Positions 18,130 to 35,517 of a stretch of 64,000 nt of DNA are shown piece by piece. The translations under genes were made by a program, and so were the position numbers. The stretch comes from Candidatus Micrarchaeia archaeon. Lineage in GTDB: Archaea > Micrarchaeota > Micrarchaeia > CAILAH01. How positions within the stretch are numbered: the first letter of the stretch is position 1; the number at the start of each line of letters is the position of its first letter. The notes beneath the pieces were generated by a model that saw only the letters and a program-made list of their open reading frames with translations, had not been told where the DNA came from and did not search any database. The stretch is taken from assembly GCA_038874595.1 (NCBI GenBank), contig JAVZCB010000003.1, forward strand, positions 59,332-123,331, read 5' to 3'.

Positions 18130-18348
18130 ATTGATTCTTGGTTTTTCTTTTAAATAATTTCTTAGTGTTTTTTGTAAAGTTTTTTTAGTGTGGTTTCTTT
18201 TTTAAAAGAAAAAGTACAAGTGTGGTTCTTTCCTTTTCTAAAAGAAAAGAATCCTAAAACTTAGAAAACCAAAACAAGCTTTCTTTTCTAGATATAAGTT
18301 TTCTTTTCTAGTGTAGTTCTTTTCTTTTTCTAAAAGAAAAGAAGTACA
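18130..18348. repeat. AT-rich imperfect tandem palindromes between the convergent flippase gene and rRNA operon (probable terminator zone)
   Basis: Three copies of GTGT(G/A)GTT..CTTT..T(C)TAAAAGAAAA near 18188, 18220 and 18311, each self-complementary. Confidence 0.6.
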
Positions 18349-18379
18349 AGGATGGAAATTTTAAGGAAGTGCATTTGGC
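18349..18379 (-). other. 3' strand of the 23S pre-rRNA processing stem (BHB)
   Basis: Pairs with 21302-21332: AGGATGGAAAT-GAGG-TTG-AAGTGCATTTGGC against GCCAAATGCACTT-CCTT-AAA-ATTTCCATCCT, a canonical bulge-helix-bulge. Confidence 0.85.
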
Positions 18380-18389
18380 ATAGAACTAT

Positions 18390-21290
18390 TGTTAAGGGCT
18401 TTAGTAGCAGTGGACTCGCAAATCGCCGAAGCTCTAAGCTTACATCCCTGCCCTATCAAACCCGTCTGTTACGGGCGCCCATACTGCGTCGTTTCGGGTG
18501 CGGCTTCGACCTTAGATGCTTTCAGGTCTTATCCGCCTGGAGCGCAGCTACCCGGCAGTGCTTTTCACAACCGGTATACCGGAGGCTCCGAGCCATCGTT
18601 CCTCTCGTACTAAATGGTCCTTCCCCTCACGCATAATCACACTTCCAGTAGATACCACCGTACTGTCTCGCGACGTACTGAACCCAGCTCACGTAGCTCT
18701 TTAACGGATGAACAACCCGACCCTTGGCGGCTTATGCACCACCAGGATGAGCTGAGCCGACAGCGATGTATCAAACCGCGAGGTCGATATGTACTCTCGC
18801 CCGCGACCAATCGGTTACCCCCGGGGTAACTTGTCTGACAGCTAGGACCCTCACCAAAAGGGAATGCCTAGGTTCGCTAGACCCGGCTTTCGCCCCTGCG
18901 TTCCACGCTTTTAGGAACACAGTCAGCCCGACATTTGTTCTTGTCCCTTACCGGTGGATTTCTGACCCACCTAAGTCGAGCATTGGGCACCCTTGTTTCC
19001 TTTTCGAGGGCGTACCACCCCAGCCAAACTATCCACCTGCAGCTGTCCTTCGGATGAAGTAAGGGTTATCGTCTCCGTTGGGTGGTGTTACAGGATTGAC
19101 TCCACGCAGCCCAGAAGCTGCGCTTCGACGTCTCCCACCTACGCTCTGCAACAGAAACAATAACCCAACAACAGGATATAGTGAAGCTCCACGGGGTCTT
19201 CTTTTCCCACTGGAAGACCTCGGTATATTCACCGAGTAATGAGTTCACCAGGTCCCGGGTAGGGACAGTAGAAGAGACGTTATGCCCTTCATGCAAGCCG
19301 CCAATTAAGCGGCGAGGTATTACGCTACCTTAAGAGGGTCAGAGTTACCCCCGCTCTTTACCAGCGCTTAGGCCCGTTGGACCGGGCTTTCACGTACTGG
19401 CAGTGAGCAGGCATCGGCCATTGTACTAAGCCTTACGGCTTTGCAATGACCTGTGTTTTTGGTAAACAGTCGCTCTTCCCTTGTCACTGCGACCTGCTGA
19501 TGCAACATTTCTGCAACAACAGCAGGCACCCCTTCTTCCTAAGTTACGAGGCTAATTTTCCGAGTTCCCTTACCCGAGTTCTCCTGCCACGCCTTGGCCT
19601 TTTCAGCCAGGGGCACCTGTATTAGTTCTAGGTACGATCTTGCAGGGTCGTTATCCGCTCACTTTTCGTGGACTCATGGCCTCAACCGAATCCCCAAACG
19701 GGGACCATTCCTCACTTTCAACCACTTCTCCTCATAATGAGTCTCGATGGTTGTATGAGAGTTAGACAGAGTCTCCTCTGCTCGGCCTAGCCGCAAGTGT
19801 CATGAGTGGATCTTGCGTTGCCGCACCTACCTGCAAGGCACCGGAATATTAACCGGTTTCCCTTTCGCTGTAAGGTGATTGGCCTACAGCTTAGGATCGG
19901 CTAACTCTCCGCTGACGAACGTTGCGGAGAAAACCGTGCCCTTTCGGCGTTTGGGATTCTCACCCAAATTTGCTGTTACTAACACCAGGATATTCATTCC
20001 GCACAGCTCCACAGGACCTCACGGCCCTGCTTCTGCACCGTGCCGACGCCTTCCTACTAGATCACACACAGAGTGTGCGCTCCTAGGTATCGGTGGCTGG
20101 TATAGCCCCTTTATCTTCGGAAACTGCCCTCTCGGTTGGTCCGCTATTACGCGTTGCTTAGAGGATGGCTGCTTCTAAGCCTACCTCCCAACTGTCTGTG
20201 AGAGGGGTTTCCTTAGCGTTTAGCACTTAACCAGCACTTGGGGACCTTAACCTAAGTCTCGGTCGTTCCCGTCACGCCCCCCGGGTTTACCCCAGGGCAC
20301 CCGACTGCACCCTTCTACGACGAGCTAATGTTCGGAGTTTAAAAGGGAAGTAGAGCCTTTCGACTCCGTGTTTCCCGATTAGTGCTCTACCACTAGTTCA
20401 GTCTCCAGGTGCGCCATGCTGAGACATGCTTCGGAAGGAACCCGCTATCGCCATGTTCGAATGGACTTTCACCCCTATACGTCGGTCACCTAAGCAGATA
20501 TACTAGCACTAGTTGAGCGCCTCCACCGGTTTTTAGACCGGCTTCGCACTGCCAACGCATAGATCACAATGGCTTCGGGTCTTGCAGTAGTGATTAACGC
20601 CTTTTCAGACGCCCCACCTCGCTTGTACTGCGTGGGCTCGCTTTCGCTCCGCATTTCTGCTCACCACTCCTGCAAACTCCCTGGCTCTTGCTTCGAGAAG
20701 AAAGACAAGACACTGGTCCCCTCATTTCGTTTCCACCCTCTCGAGTGGTCACTTCAATAAGGATCTACCCTTTCGCGCCTTGCCAACATGTCGCCATACA
20801 GTTTCAGGCTCTTTTAACCCTCCTACCTGGAGTGCTTTTCAGCGTTCCCTCACGGTACTAATCCGCTATCGGACTCCGGCATCTGTTTAGATTTAGAGGT
20901 TGGTACCCCCATATTCCGACTCCCTCAGGGAGCCGTACTCTTTGCACCTTCCTCCAGCACAATCCGCTTACGGGGCTATCACCCTTTATCGCAGAGCTTT
21001 CCATCTCACTTCAGCTCATGTACTGGATAGAATTGGTGCACCACATCCGCCCCGAAGTTACCCTCGGGGAGTTCGGTTTGATTCTGTTGGGCGTTCACTC
21101 GCCGTTACTAACCCAATCGCAATTGCTTTCTTTTCCTCCCGCTACTAAGATGCTTCAATTCACGGGGTTACAGCCCATTTCTGGGCAACGGGCGATCTCG
21201 GGTTCAATGGTCGCATGCACCTACCCCGAGCTTATCGCAGCTTGCCACGGCCCAAAGCCGGAACCAGGCCATCCCCTGTATGGCTTAAAC
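18390..21290 (-). rRNA. rrl: 23S rRNA (ends approximate)
   Basis: Sarcin-ricin loop (AGTACGAGAGGAAC), PTC segments, GTAACTCTGACCCTCTTAAGGTAGC, GGCAAGCTGCGATAAGC near the 5' end; about 2.9 kb. Confidence 0.97.
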
Positions 21291-21301
21291 AATAGATATT
21301 C

Positions 21302-21332
21302 GCCAAATGCACTTCAACCTCATTTCCATCCT
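21302..21332 (-). other. 5' strand of the 23S pre-rRNA processing stem (BHB)
   Basis: Complementary to 18349-18379 with two 3-nt bulges around a 4-bp helix. Confidence 0.85.
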
Positions 21333-21373
21333 CCCATTCGGGAAGATGTGAGCACTCAACGAAGGAAACTCAC

Positions 21374-21486
21374 TGTGTCGCTTTTTAGGCAGTTGTGTGT
21401 GAAGCACACAATTTGCAACCGAAGGTTGCAACTCCCAAAAAAGCGTAGTTTTTGGTGTCGCTTTTTAGGCATCCCAAAAAAGCGAC
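21374..21486 (-). repeat. Duplicated hairpin unit in the spacer; second copy carries a 41-nt insertion
   Basis: CGCTTTTTTGGGA/TGCCTAAAAAGCGACAC occurs twice; the downstream copy is interrupted at 21392-21432. Confidence 0.85.
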
Positions 21487-21487
21487 T

Positions 21488-21630
21488 TGCAAAGCGGGCG
21501 CTCTACCGGACTGAGCTATGAGCCCTTGAGCACGTCACGTTTCTCGATACCGTGACCTGCAGGATGGACTCAGCGAGATGCCCAGCACTTTTTTCCTAAA
21601 AAAGTGCTTTTGAACTCGCGGCCTCCCGCT
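21488..21630 (-). tRNA. tRNA-Ala(UGC), circularly permuted: 3' half 21630-21565 (with 30-nt 59/60 intron 21608-21579), 39-nt linker, 5' half 21525-21488
   Basis: 5' half GGGCTCATAGCTCAGTCCGGTAGAGCGCCCGCTTTGCA; 3' half AGCGGGAGGCCGCGAGTTCAAA[intron]TCTCGCTGAGTCCA. Together they give a full cloverleaf with G3:U70 and A73. Confidence 0.92.
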
Positions 21631-21896
21631 TTTTTGGTGTTTCCTTCTCGTGCCTGTACAGGCTTCAAGAGATTTAGCTTGAGCAAAAAGGCAATACTAC
21701 AAACTCTGACCTTGCAACCTTAGAAGATCTCAAATATGCTTACAACCTAACACGTATATTCTTGTTAGGAGGTGATCTATCCGCAGGTTCCCCTACGGAT
21801 ACCTTGTTACGACTTAGCCCCCCTCATGAAACTCTAGTTCGATAACGGCAAGAACCGCTACCTCACTAGAACCTCACTTGGGTGACTTGACGGGCA

Positions 21897-21934
<38 letters not shown>

Positions 21935-21952
21935 CTGACATGCGATTACTAG

Positions 21953-21993
<41 letters not shown>

Positions 21994-22178
21994 CACTGGG
22001 ATGGGGTTTCAGGGATTAGCTCACCCTTTCGGGTTTGCAACCCGTTGTTCCCACCATTGTAGGCCACGTGTAGCCCGGGAAATTCGGGGCATACTGACCT
22101 ACCGTCGCTCACTCCTTCCTCCTGCTTAACGCAGGCAGTCCCCTTAGAGTGCTTCCTGGACGAATCCAAGAATCGCAA

Positions 22179-22673
22179 CTAAGGGCGTGGGTCTCGCTCG
22201 TTTCCGGACCACATAGCCTGAGAGTGGGGTTTGATGAAAGTGAGGAATTCTCTGGGAGGGGATGGAATTAAGTATTTGCCTTCTTTGATGAGCCTGAACC
22301 CAAGGCGCTCTATTAGCATCTGCTTATCAGCGCCGACACTGAACATCCTGGGTATTCCGTTCTCATCAATAAATCCTGATGCATCGAACACGCCCGCAAC
22401 AAATGCGGCGCTGTATGCATTCCTGTGTTTGAACCTGAGGTCCATTTCTTTCTCAACCTCTGAGAAGAATTTTTTGTACCCTGAGTGGTAGAAATATGCC
22501 TTCTTCCCGCTCAGCAGTATCTTGCTTGCGGGCATAAGCCCTGCATTTATAACTGCGCTTATGAAATGCTCACGCACGTGCGGAAGCCCCCGCACGCCGA
22601 TTCCTACCCATGATTTTCGTGTAGACCACATACCTATTATATATGCAAGTTCTGGCGTTAGCTTTATTTTCAT
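22179..22673 (-). CDS. LAGLIDADG-family homing endonuclease-like protein, intron encoded
   Basis: ELAYIIGMW (degenerate first motif) and AAFVAGVFDASG (second motif). Confidence 0.8.
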   Translation of the reverse strand: MKIKLTPELAYIIGMWSTRKSWVGIGVRGLPHVREHFISAVINAGLMPASKILLSGKKAYFYHSGYKKFFSEVEKEMDLRFKHRNAYSAAFVAGVFDASGFIDENGIPRMFSVGADKQMLIERLGFRLIKEGKYLIPSPPREFLTFIKPHSQAMWSGNERDPRP

Positions 22674-22712
22674 AATTTCCCCCCATCAAACCTTATCTCA
22701 AACTCTGTGATT
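22202..22712 (-). mobile_element. Archaeal BHB-type 16S rRNA intron (511 nt) carrying a LAGLIDADG ORF
   Basis: Interrupts GTTAAGTCCGG..AACGAGCG; terminal stem ATCACA/TGTGGT, bulge GAA, helix CCGG/CCGG, bulge AAA; exact register is ambiguous because GTCCGG is at both ends. Confidence 0.88.
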
Positions 22713-22866
22713 TCCCGGACTTAACCGGACAGTTCACACCACGAGCTGACGATGGCCATGCACCACCTCTCGGCTTGTCAAGCAAGGTCTTTAGCCTGGC
22801 TCTCATTCTGCCGTCGTTCCCGGTAAGATTCCCGGCGTTGAATCCAATTGAACCGCAGCCTCCACG

Positions 22867-22901
<35 letters not shown>

Positions 22902-23001
22902 TAGCCTTGCGGCCGTACTCCCCAGGTGGCAGACTTAACACCTACGCTACGGCACGGCAGCCGCTCAAAGCTGCTGCCACACCAAGTCTGCATCATTTAC
23001 A

Positions 23002-23043
<42 letters not shown>

Positions 23044-23115
23044 CTTCGTTCCTCACCGTCGGACGTGTTTTGGTCAGGCGCCTTCGCCACTGCTGGTCCG
23101 CCCAGGATTAACGGA

Positions 23116-23158
23116 TTGTAATCCCGTGGATTGCAAATTGTTGATGCAATCAACAGGT
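23116..23158 (-). other. 43-nt mini-intron in the 16S 690 loop (about E. coli 696/697)
   Basis: Removal restores GTAGGGGTAAAATCCGTTAATCC; BHB-like with helix GTAA/TTAC and bulges AAA and AAT. Confidence 0.75.
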
Positions 23159-23428
23159 TTTTACCCCTACCCCGGGCGTACCCCTGACCTCCCCCACTCC
23201 CAAGCCTAGCAGTATTACTGGCCCGCCCTTCGGTTAAGCCGAAGGATTTCACCAGCAACTTACAAGGCCGGCTACGAACGCTTTAGACCCAATATGCGTG
23301 GGTACCACTAGTAGTGCCGGTATTACCGCGGCGGCTGGCACCGGTCTTACCCACTCCTTATTCGCCTAGTTTTTTAGACTAAGCAAAAGGTCTCCCGAAG
23401 GAGACCACTCGGAGTTCCCCCATCACAC

Positions 23429-23476
23429 TTTTGCACCTTGCAAAGCAAGTGCAAATTGCAAAGCTCGCTTTGCATG
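23429..23476 (-). other. About 48-nt insertion in the 16S helix 15 loop (about E. coli 382)
   Basis: Removal restores CAATGCACGAAAGTGTGA; two hairpins; BHB fit imperfect. Confidence 0.7.
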
Positions 23477-24133
23477 TTCGTGCATTGTGGAGTTTTCGCG
23501 CCTGCTGCATCCCGTAGGACTAGGGCCCTTGTCTCAGTGCCCTTCTGGGGGCTCCCACTTACATGGCCCCTAAGGATTATAGGTTTGGTGGGCCGTTACC
23601 CCGCCAACAGCCTAATCCTCCGCAACCTCATCCTAAAGCGGACACACTCCAATTCGTGTGCCTTTTGAGCGAGAGGGCATTCCAGCGTCTCTCACCTATA
23701 GGGTATTATCCTCAGTTTCCCGAGGTTACCCCCTTCTTTAGGGCAGATTGATTACGTGTTACTCAGCCGTTTGCCACTCGTCCAGGTGAACGGGTAGACT
23801 TGCATGGCTTAGTCGAACTCCGATAGCAGTACCCTCCAGCAGGATCAACTGGAGTTGCTAAGGTCTTGGCATTCGCACCAGTGTTGGTGCATCTAGGTCA
23901 TACCACTTTGCGTGTAGTATCTTACCGTACATATGTGCCTTTCAGCACAGTGCACGTTTGCCTATTGCTCTTTAAGCCTCTCTTGAAGCCTCTATCTAAC
24001 CCGACACATCTTCGGATTATCATCAAGTCGCCGCATGTGCGGCCTATGCGCCACAATGGAAGCAGGCCTCATAGAAAGAGTATCACATCTCGGCCTAGCC
24101 GGGTTATGGCATCTCAACTTTAAGAAGTCTAGG

Positions 24134-24235: not shown

Positions 24236-25396
24236 TTGAATGCACCCATGCGCGTAACATTGATAGATCAAAACGGCAATGTATTTCCAACATACCTTCG
24301 TAAGAATCTGAAGGTTGAGGTGGTAAAGAACCGTGATGGGTTTGTGCGTCTTAAGATGAAGCACGATTCGCTTAAATCTTCTGGCGGTTCACTGAACCTG
24401 CTTGAAAAGCGCTATCTTGCACATATAGGCCCTAATACAAAGCAAATCAAAATTACTGCTGATGTGCTAAGAGCAGTCAGGCTGGTTAAGCACATTCGTG
24501 AAAGTTATGATATCGAGAAGGAAAAGCTCGCAAAATTGTTTGAGTACATATCAAATGCAATCATGCTCTTAGAAAGGCACAATAAAAAATCAAAGCAGTG
24601 CGAAGAGGATTTATCTCTTGCAGAATCTTTTGTTGTAGGGACAATCTGCGGAATGAATCAGGCGCGCTCCTTTTATAAGGTGCTCTCGAAGGCAAAGCTT
24701 GAGAAAGCTGTTTATTATATAAAGAGTGCGCAGATTGCAGAAAATGATTTTGAAATGAATATGCACCTCAAACCCGCATCTTCTATATTATATGCTGCAA
24801 AGAGGCGCTTGGAGATGCGCCTGGATAGTATTGGCAATATAAAGAACTATAATTTGCAGCGTGAGATGCTGCTGCGGGGCATGCGTGATATGTATATACA
24901 CCGCAAGATGTTATCCCTTGCACAATGGCTAACTAATAACCCTGGAACAGTGGTTGATGCGTACCTCTCTGATATAAACATATACAATAGGCTGCTCAAG
25001 CTGCAGGAGAGATGCATGGATAATTATATACGAGAGGGGGATAGGTTTGCAAAGTTCCAAAGTGATTTGGAAGCGCTTGGCAGCTCTCTAAAGCAAATAA
25101 AGGGCAAGGAGAAATTGGTTGACCTTTTGAGAGAGGCGTACGTATGGGGTGTTAAGCGCTTTATGTTTGATATGGCATACCAAATGTTTGACACAGCGGT
25201 TGTTTATGTTGGTGTGAACAAGCCATTCTATATCTGGTCGCAGCTCGAAAAGACAAATGATCCATATACCTCTCCAGTCATATCAAAGCTGCAGGAAGTT
25301 GACGAGCATATGCTTAGCAGGAACCCAAAGGCAGCCCTGGAAAAAGTGTATGACACGATTGGTTTTTATGAGAAGCTGTTCAAAGGTGCGGTGTAG
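24236..25396 (+). CDS. Hypothetical, largely alpha-helical protein
   Basis: 386-aa ORF with TTTATAA about 20 nt upstream; no motif recognised. Confidence 0.7.
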   Translation: MNAPMRVTLIDQNGNVFPTYLRKNLKVEVVKNRDGFVRLKMKHDSLKSSGGSLNLLEKRYLAHIGPNTKQIKITADVLRAVRLVKHIRESYDIEKEKLAKLFEYISNAIMLLERHNKKSKQCEEDLSLAESFVVGTICGMNQARSFYKVLSKAKLEKAVYYIKSAQIAENDFEMNMHLKPASSILYAAKRRLEMRLDSIGNIKNYNLQREMLLRGMRDMYIHRKMLSLAQWLTNNPGTVVDAYLSDINIYNRLLKLQERCMDNYIREGDRFAKFQSDLEALGSSLKQIKGKEKLVDLLREAYVWGVKRFMFDMAYQMFDTAVVYVGVNKPFYIWSQLEKTNDPYTSPVISKLQEVDEHMLSRNPKAALEKVYDTIGFYEKLFKGAV

Positions 25397-25467
25397 GAGA
25401 ATAGAAAAATATATAAACCCAAAATAAAGCAAAAGTAATTACAGATTTAATCATAGGTGTGTAAACG

Positions 25468-26679
25468 ATGAGCACAATTAAGAAAAGACCTGGATATTCG
25501 CTTATGCGCGAAACCCAAAATGAAGAAAAAGGGCGCGAGCTTGCAAAGATGATGAAAACTAATCCAAAGGCGATGCGCTATTTTATGAAGAGGAACCCTT
25601 TTGTAAGGGTTGGCGAGATAGGCGAGATGGTCATCTCGACAGAATCGCACTCAAGAAAGGAATGGCTGCGCTCTGCGTTTTACAATCTTGCAGAGCCCTA
25701 CCTGAAAGATGACAAGATGCGCGATGTTAACATTGAGGGTGCAGTTAAGGGTACGCTTGAGGCGGCAAAGAAAGAAATTATGTCAAAGCCTGTAAAGACT
25801 GAAGATGATTTGAATTGTTTAAAGGTTATTGATGAGATGCTCAAAAAGGATAATGAAATTGACTCATCAAAAATTCTAAAGGACAAGGAAAAATGGTGGA
25901 GGCGCATATTGCGTTTCTTAACAGCAGCAGCTCTAGGTGCTGCGCTTATGCTTCCGTTTATGTCGCGTGAAGGTGATATCGAGCCAAAGGTTGTTGAGAA
26001 GAGGATTGAGGACCCAGAAACAAAGAAATCCCTTGAGGAGTGCCTTGCAGCACTTAACAATAATAAGTGCCCGCCATCCAAGGTTGTTTACAAGAAAGTT
26101 TCTGGAAACATTGATTTGGATAATGTATGCAGTGGCAGGACCGGCCCGCTTGCACAATCACTTCTGACTTGCGAGAATGAGCTTTCGAAACTTAAGGATG
26201 AGCTTGCAAGGATATCCGCACTTAAGGGTGACAATGAGAAATATGCCCAACTTAAAGTAGAGCTTATGGCGAAAGTTGACAGGATATTCAATGGTATTGG
26301 TTTGGAAACTGAGAATGAGTTATACCGGAAGCAGATACGGCCATGGTTCAAGAGCGGTATTGACAAAGATGACCCTGTAATGATAGCACTTGTGATTGAG
26401 ATGGGCGGTGAGCTGCTTGTCCAGAAAATTACTGATAAAAAGGTTGTGGAAATCTCCGAACCAAAGAGCCAGAAAGAATTTTCTGATGTTTTTGAGGAAG
26501 GAAACCTTGCCTATCTTTATGGCATAGCGTTTGATAAAAATAGTGGTAACCGCAGAGACGGGATGAAAAAGGCTGCATGGGAGTATTACAAGGTGAAATA
26601 TAAATTGTTCCAGAATGTCCTTAATAAGTTTAAGAATTCTGATGAAGAAAATTCTGATGAAGATGTGCTAGATAGATAA
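25468..26679 (+). CDS. Hypothetical membrane-anchored coiled-coil protein
   Basis: Single hydrophobic segment after WWRR, followed by a Cys-containing coiled region. Confidence 0.7.
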   Translation: MSTIKKRPGYSLMRETQNEEKGRELAKMMKTNPKAMRYFMKRNPFVRVGEIGEMVISTESHSRKEWLRSAFYNLAEPYLKDDKMRDVNIEGAVKGTLEAAKKEIMSKPVKTEDDLNCLKVIDEMLKKDNEIDSSKILKDKEKWWRRILRFLTAAALGAALMLPFMSREGDIEPKVVEKRIEDPETKKSLEECLAALNNNKCPPSKVVYKKVSGNIDLDNVCSGRTGPLAQSLLTCENELSKLKDELARISALKGDNEKYAQLKVELMAKVDRIFNGIGLETENELYRKQIRPWFKSGIDKDDPVMIALVIEMGGELLVQKITDKKVVEISEPKSQKEFSDVFEEGNLAYLYGIAFDKNSGNRRDGMKKAAWEYYKVKYKLFQNVLNKFKNSDEENSDEDVLDR

Positions 26680-35261: not shown

Positions 35262-35369
35262 CGCCCACGCTGGGATTTGAACCCAGATCAAAGGCTTGCT
35301 TCTTGAAAGCCAAACAGCGTGGCCTTTCAGCCGGAGGCCCTCATTCTATCCAAGTTAAACTACGTGGGC
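35262..35369 (-). tRNA. tRNA-Arg(CCG) with 34-nt intron at 37/38 (35330-35297)
   Basis: GCCCACG/CGTGGGC acceptor, AGGGC-CTCCGG|A-GCCTT anticodon arm, CTGGG-TTCAAAT-CCCAG. Confidence 0.9.
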
Positions 35370-35406: not shown

Positions 35407-35517
35407 CGGGCCCGACGGGATTTTTGGGCGCATAACAGCTGAAATGCAACTGCCACACAGAACCCGTGACCTTCGGATTAAAAGTCCGCCGCTCTGGCCA
35501 AGCTGAGCTACGGGCCC
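35407..35517 (-). tRNA. tRNA-Lys(UUU) with 36-nt T-loop intron at 56/57 (35459-35424)
   Basis: GGGCCCG/CGGGCCC acceptor, loop CTTTTAA; BHB helix GGGT/GCCC with a 12-bp intron stem. Confidence 0.9.

Follow-up and report, generated by a model that had tools for sequence, protein, structure and literature searches.

[quoted passage not shown] One review counted 34 such genes, two of them archaeal, both from Thermofilum pendens and both joined at position 59/60 (PMC3978253). These two genes are single copy, place the 3' part first, bear a BHB motif at the junction and an extra ordinary intron at 37/38, have linkers of 7 and 1 nt, encode CCA, and possess their own promoter (PMC3218864). Type II permuted tRNAs, joined at 37/38 through an hBH-type motif, are eukaryotic nuclear or nucleomorph genes of Cyanidioschyzon merolae, prasinophytes, and the Bigelowiella nucleomorph, with linkers of 1 to 74 nt and CCA added later; they are not reported within an rRNA operon. 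Algal permuted tRNAs have been shown to pass through a circular intermediate in which the linker is kept (PMC3978253). Split tRNAs of Nanoarchaeum equitans, Caldivirga, Aeropyrum, and Staphylothermus are also assembled from BHB-joined halves, often at 37/38 and with complementary flanks, and are encoded as separate, trans-spliced genes (PMC3218864). In normal order, tRNA-Ala(UGC) sits between the 16S and 23S processing stems in M. maripaludis (PMC10515664) and in Micrarchaeia. [quoted passage not shown]

Here we describe a tRNA-Ala(UGC) gene in a hot-spring Micrarchaeia archaeon, a member of the DPANN as the initial annotation had guessed from the DNA. All coordinates are positions within the window, the 64,000-nt stretch of contig JAVZCB010000003.1 (GCA_038874595.1) that was analyzed, and all features of the locus lie on its minus strand. 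Between the 16S rRNA gene (21767-23855, matched by the archaeal model, with insertions) and the 23S rRNA gene (18381-21300, model match), the spacer reads, in order of transcription, tRNA positions 38 to 73, interrupted at 59/60 by a 30-nt intron, then a 39-nt linker and positions 1 to 37. The 3' half is composed of positions 38-59 (21609-21630; the variable loop and T loop together with the anticodon 3' strand and T-stem 5' strand), the intron (21579-21608), a canonical BHB with a 4-bp central helix, two 3-nt bulges, and a 10-bp inner helix, and positions 60-73 (21565-21578), which include U70 and the discriminator A73 and end without an encoded CCA. The linker (21526-21564) is a hairpin that closes the acceptor stem with 4 unpaired nt on each side, and the 5' half (21488-21525), carrying the anticodon UGC, is 38 nt long owing to one extra D-loop base. 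Pairing and repeat analysis identified the end of the leader (21631-21640) as a 10-mer that matches the ancestral intron's 3' end exactly; it supplies the 4-nt strand of the 37/38 central helix (21636-21633) plus a bulge. Leader and trailer are further held together by a 9-bp helix between 21639-21647, with a pairing probability of 0.96 to 1.0 at 37 °C, and 21361-21369, paired base by base. Cofolding placed the whole arrangement between the 3' arm of the pre-16S processing stem (21660-21696, partner ~23958-23995) and the 5' arm of the pre-23S processing stem (21303-21332, partner ~18350-18380), the limits of both being approximate.

When the exons are placed in tRNA order, they form a 74-nt tRNA-Ala(tgc) with G3:U70 and A73, as called by ARAGORN and supported by the fold and by identity with orthologs. 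Hence the order and coordinates of halves and linker, the cloverleaf with its alanine identity elements, the 59/60 intron, and the distal leader-trailer pairing, all of which had been proposed from the sequence alone, were reproduced. The expectation that standard scanners would fail was also borne out, since ARAGORN returned nothing from the raw window and Rfam missed the gene at its gathering score. With two halves on one strand, the 3' half upstream, a short linker, a canonical rebuilt tRNA, and, by computation, a BHB-type motif formed from leader and trailer at 37/38, we confirm that the locus is a genuine member of the permuted tRNA class. Chance resemblance is excluded by the rebuilt tRNA, which is 1 of 74 nt from its orthologs, together with the stability of the spacer fold (z = -5.8).

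The locus nevertheless departs from each described system. With T. pendens it shares an archaeal host, a single copy, the 3' part first, a junction BHB, and an extra ordinary intron, yet the positions are mirrored, the junction being at 37/38 and the ordinary intron at 59/60, which sets it apart from the type IV arrangement. The linker is also longer (39 nt), CCA is not encoded, the gene is located inside the pre-rRNA, and the host is a DPANN archaeon with an epsilon2 enzyme rather than a crenarchaeon. Junction position, the hBH-type motif, a linker within the algal range, and later CCA addition are common to the Type II genes; the permuted Ala(UGC) of C. merolae, unlike this one, is joined at 59/60. 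In contrast to split tRNAs, which are separate transcription units, both halves lie 39 nt apart in one transcript between the 16S and 23S processing stems. The site and the exons are those of the normal spacer tRNA-Ala(UGC), and the spacer genes of the nearest relatives have the same two intron sites.

All helices could be paired base by base, namely the outer 9 bp, the 4-bp central helix at 37/38, the anticodon, T, acceptor, and D stems, and the BHB at 59/60. The anticodon, T, and acceptor stems and the leader-trailer helix dominated the computed ensemble from 37 to 70 °C. A strict BHB at the 59/60 intron cost 3.6 kcal/mol over the minimum free energy. The BHB core claimed at 37/38 stood in part: its 4-bp central helix does pair, but the motif is better described as a relaxed hBH (+3.6 kcal/mol), as the strict hBHBh' form is costlier (+9.8). 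Although this central helix had a probability below 0.05 in the computed ensemble, its cost falls inside the range of 2.8 to 9.6 kcal/mol found for ordinary 37/38 introns of six relatives and is no greater than that of genes in normal order.

Every processing enzyme named in the initial annotation is encoded, as is a CCA enzyme. RtcB, the RNase P RNA, and the CCA enzyme scored over their cut-offs, and a probable RNase Z, full length, scored 288.6 bits against a curated cut-off of 292.95, about 4 bits under. The nearest named homologs of the endonuclease are 373- to 396-aa proteins of Micrarchaeia and Micrarchaeota, and its best PDB match, over residues 151-387, is the epsilon2 enzyme of ARMAN-2 (4FZ2). 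It keeps Y160 and K161 of the ARMAN-specific loop, Y236, H251, R275, K282, and W384 (residue roles per PMC12397907), and it fits the epsilon2 type, defined by a three-unit chain of ~390 aa, the loop, and the catalytic Y/H/K. The copy in this genome has lost its N-terminus at a contig end, and its apparent frameshift is a 10-N scaffold gap (L066:340-349, contig C7); a 373-aa protein, P0001, is identical to the product on both sides of the gap. The ARMAN-2 enzyme cuts both strict and relaxed motifs in vitro (PMC3239211).

We consider it likely, with a probability of roughly 0.85, that this is a functional, recently arisen, circularly permuted tRNA-Ala(UGC), cotranscribed in the pre-rRNA and spliced by EndA and RtcB. 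In silico, the halves are predicted to fold into a cloverleaf in which the linker closes the acceptor end and the anticodon loop opens to the rest of the transcript. The epsilon2 EndA would cut both BHB motifs, the relaxed one at 37/38 and the strict one at 59/60, and RtcB would join 37 to 38 and 59 to 60, as motif geometry, gene presence, and the published activity of the ARMAN-2 enzyme suggest. RNase P and RNase Z act on the pre-rRNA backbone in the case of the normal spacer tRNA, whereas here their predicted sites sit in a closed loop, so that EndA alone would be able to free the tRNA. Splicing would then most likely release it as a linker-containing circle, RNase P and RNase Z would excise the linker at the predicted sites flanking the acceptor stem, and the CCA enzyme would finish the 3' end. 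By analogy with C. merolae, the released circle probably retains its linker. In a less probable order of events, RNase P and RNase Z would remove the linker first and EndA and RtcB would join the paired halves afterward, as in a split tRNA. [quoted passage not shown] This route is a variant of the best explanation, from which it differs only in the order of steps.

The layout of the spacer also bears on how the permutation arose. Comparison within a hairpin family that recurs in tRNA introns of this genome and of its taxonomic family showed that a complete 39-nt intron of the 37/38 type (21449-21487) is retained behind the 5' half, such that 5' half, 39-nt piece, and 3' half would together make up an ordinary intron-containing gene. 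The final 10 nt of this retained intron occur again immediately upstream of the 3' half (8 of 1,000 shuffles), although 6 of the 10 nt are required by the junction anyway. Farther downstream, a 71-nt hairpin element (21375-21445) is a possible relic of a 59/60 intron; in genomes of the same genus and family it occurs as a free-standing element as well as within tRNA introns at 59/60 and 37/38, and T-loop introns of G001 and G007 contain it. A possible decayed copy of exon 60-73 (21354-21362) matches at 8 of 9 nt, a weak and nonsignificant signal (shuffle p ~0.06), and lies just before a conserved helix that trails the tRNA in G004 and G005, the place of the 3' exon in these relatives. The spacer showed neither an upstream remnant of the 5' half nor a downstream remnant of exon 38-59, and an origin of the linker as a copy of the leader was not significant (p 0.06 to 0.16). 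A local splice between the 5' half and the end of the intron retained behind it was rejected as a dead end, having no anticodon stem. A different tRNA intron in the genome contains tandem repeats.

Two models compete for the origin of permuted genes, duplication in which the outer exons are lost and reverse transcription (PMC3978253). The retained intron, the repeated intron end, the 71-nt element, and the 3'-exon match form the layout that the duplication model predicts. On balance, these traces are suggestive of tandem duplication of an intron-containing spacer gene, after which the first copy lost its 5' half and the second its 3' half. Reverse transcription and reinsertion of a circular or permuted pre-tRNA, rather than duplication and decay of DNA, is an unlikely origin. 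It is listed as an alternative in the same review, and intron elements of the host family do look mobile, but an opened circle would split the intron once, while here the whole intron stays with its 3' end present twice, and the gene has remained at the ancestral spacer position. Two related hairpin elements (window 21375-21487; L049-L061) were observed in tRNA introns, inside the 23S gene of G005, and free-standing, in several copies lying between or within genes, in G001. The hairpin elements of 21375-21487 look like a mobile, intron-forming family.

To place the permutation in time, we compared spacers across Micrarchaeia. The 5' half of tRNA-Ala(UGC) was recognizable in 140 of 401 genomes, and in all 139 others with a recognizable gene (121 from sequence and 18 from coordinates) the 3' half lies downstream, in normal order; 15 loci left unclassed by the script were normal on inspection. 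Family members with a spacer (G004, G005, and G006) have the normal order and introns at 37/38 and 59/60, as does the closest relative found, a JGI contig (L077) whose 23S is 95.6% identical. The spacer is absent from the same-genus MAGs G001 and G002 and from the family MAGs G003, G007, and G008. Outside Micrarchaeia, scans covered Ala(UGC) with a linker of 15 to 45 nt. The GTDB genomes gave 16 matches, all tRNAs in normal order, and the JGI metagenome contigs gave two chance matches, one in a coding region and one in a bacterial Ala-Ile spacer. A phage collection yielded 23S matches only. Since normal order is universal among the 139 other Micrarchaeia genomes with a recognizable gene, the permutation is recent and, within the genomes searched, limited to this species.

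Of 46 standard archaeal tRNAs, 45, most of them broken by introns, were located in the genome, which is 93.5% complete in seven contigs; Arg(CCU) was the only one not found. The alanine tRNAs are GGC, CGC, and the permuted UGC, and no second tRNA-Ala(UGC), intact or otherwise, was present among the 45; an intact copy, combined with a lack of junction-spanning RNA reads, had been named in advance as grounds for abandoning the permuted gene. In a rough count over long ORFs, GCA accounted for 9,214 of 18,727 alanine codons, about half, and was the commonest. Under standard wobble rules, decoding of GCA requires a UGC anticodon. As the sole Ala(UGC) located, the gene must work. Its mature sequence differs by 1 of 74 nt, a variable-loop base, from the normal-order orthologs in L077 and G006, whose flanks offer no alignment to the leader, linker, or trailer, as expected under purifying selection on the exons. 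It is improbable that the locus is a rearranged pseudogene, with GCA read by an intact tRNA-Ala(UGC) from a host or from unassembled DNA. A second copy could sit in a gap of the incomplete assembly, Arg(CCU) is likewise not found, and RNA contigs do not cover the gene; against this stand exons kept to 1 nt beside diverged flanks, two intact splice motifs and an intact leader-trailer helix, and a spacer that is the ancestral locus of tRNA-Ala(UGC). Contigs of two RNA runs (X3 and X16) do not reach the tRNA, those of X3 including pieces from a relative that match 21138-21365 and 21704-21825 and both end short of it.

No further permuted tRNA was found in the genome, and two script matches (C4 and C6) were rejected for having no tRNA features. 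A tRNA-Lys(UUU) with an intron within the T loop (window ~35407-35517, minus strand) is in tandem with a tRNA-Arg(CCG) carrying a 37/38 intron (~35262-35369, minus strand), and both are missed by ARAGORN run without an intron search. A tRNA-Leu(UAG) on contig C3 (148867-149240) has one intron in the D loop and a second, long one at 37/38 built of ~72-nt tandem repeats. On contig C1 (42071) there is a tRNA-Ile with a UAU anticodon, and no Ile(CAU) candidate was seen; ARMAN-2 likewise has Ile(UAU).

The initial annotation had asked whether the order might be mis-assembled. Each of two hot-spring runs of 2024, drawn from two studies, yielded one unbroken 1,109-nt contig over 20900-21796, at depths of 8.3 and 9.5, and the contig of the second carries a SNP at 21446. 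A second assembly of the species, GCA_038891275.1, has the permuted order and the same SNP, with 99.9% identity over 20.7 kb. This genome may itself derive from one of the runs, and a single campaign may lie behind both studies; we therefore count this support, drawn from contigs and not raw reads, as two samples and four assemblies. It is very improbable that assembly swapped the halves around repeated hairpins: depth is just 8 to 10, the spacer has short repeats, and contigs alone were compared, but the order recurs in four assemblies of at least two samples, which are told apart by a SNP in one of them, the longest direct repeat of 17 nt is too short to mislead graph assembly at the usual longer k-mers, and the complementary leader-trailer helix makes sense solely in the permuted order.

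Other features of the rRNA operon and its surroundings were also noted. The 16S gene exceeds the model by ~600 nt, contains several short insertions, and lacks a 132-nt insert (site 22090) that L077 has in 16S, as the 23S gene lacks a 633-nt insert (site 19346). ORFs overlapping the 16S gene matched no family, and no 5S gene was present in the window. An A/T-rich, repetitive, self-complementary tract (18130-18345) follows just after the 23S processing stem. At 24236-26679 are two ~390-aa proteins of no family, the first of which has only four homologs, marking the host lineage and often located beside an rRNA operon. In other genomes, a CRISPR-like repeat-spacer array was observed ~190 nt downstream of a stand-alone 16S gene (G010 and G021; L018 and L019), and a duplicate of the 16S 3' end with its trailer, resembling an integration scar, ~415 nt past the 16S end (G032; L015).

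The literature searched, with most subscription journals outside its coverage, held no report of an archaeal tRNA permuted at 37/38, a permuted tRNA from DPANN, or one in an rRNA operon, in keeping with the novelty first claimed for the locus. As far as that literature extends, the gene is the first of each kind and the third permuted tRNA gene reported from prokaryotes, the previous two, both 59/60, coming from one crenarchaeon. It brings a 37/38 junction of algal type to the conserved tRNA in the rRNA operon spacer and offers a recent, traceable case for the origin of scrambled tRNA genes, previously argued from models. The ancestral order persists in a relative whose 23S is 95.6% identical, and the locus itself preserves both the intact intron and a duplicated intron end, so near relatives can serve to test the origin models. 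The pathway is open to testing in vitro, given a substrate of ~310 nt and an ARMAN-2 enzyme available as recombinant protein. Tentatively, this first archaeal tRNA permuted in the anticodon loop may have been caught soon after tandem duplication, its spacer tRNA forming a third EndA-excised circle beside pre-16S and pre-23S, so that EndA and RtcB would dismantle the whole operon and RNase P and RNase Z would no longer cut its backbone. More generally, tRNAs that seem to be missing from DPANN genomes can be blind spots of the scanners.
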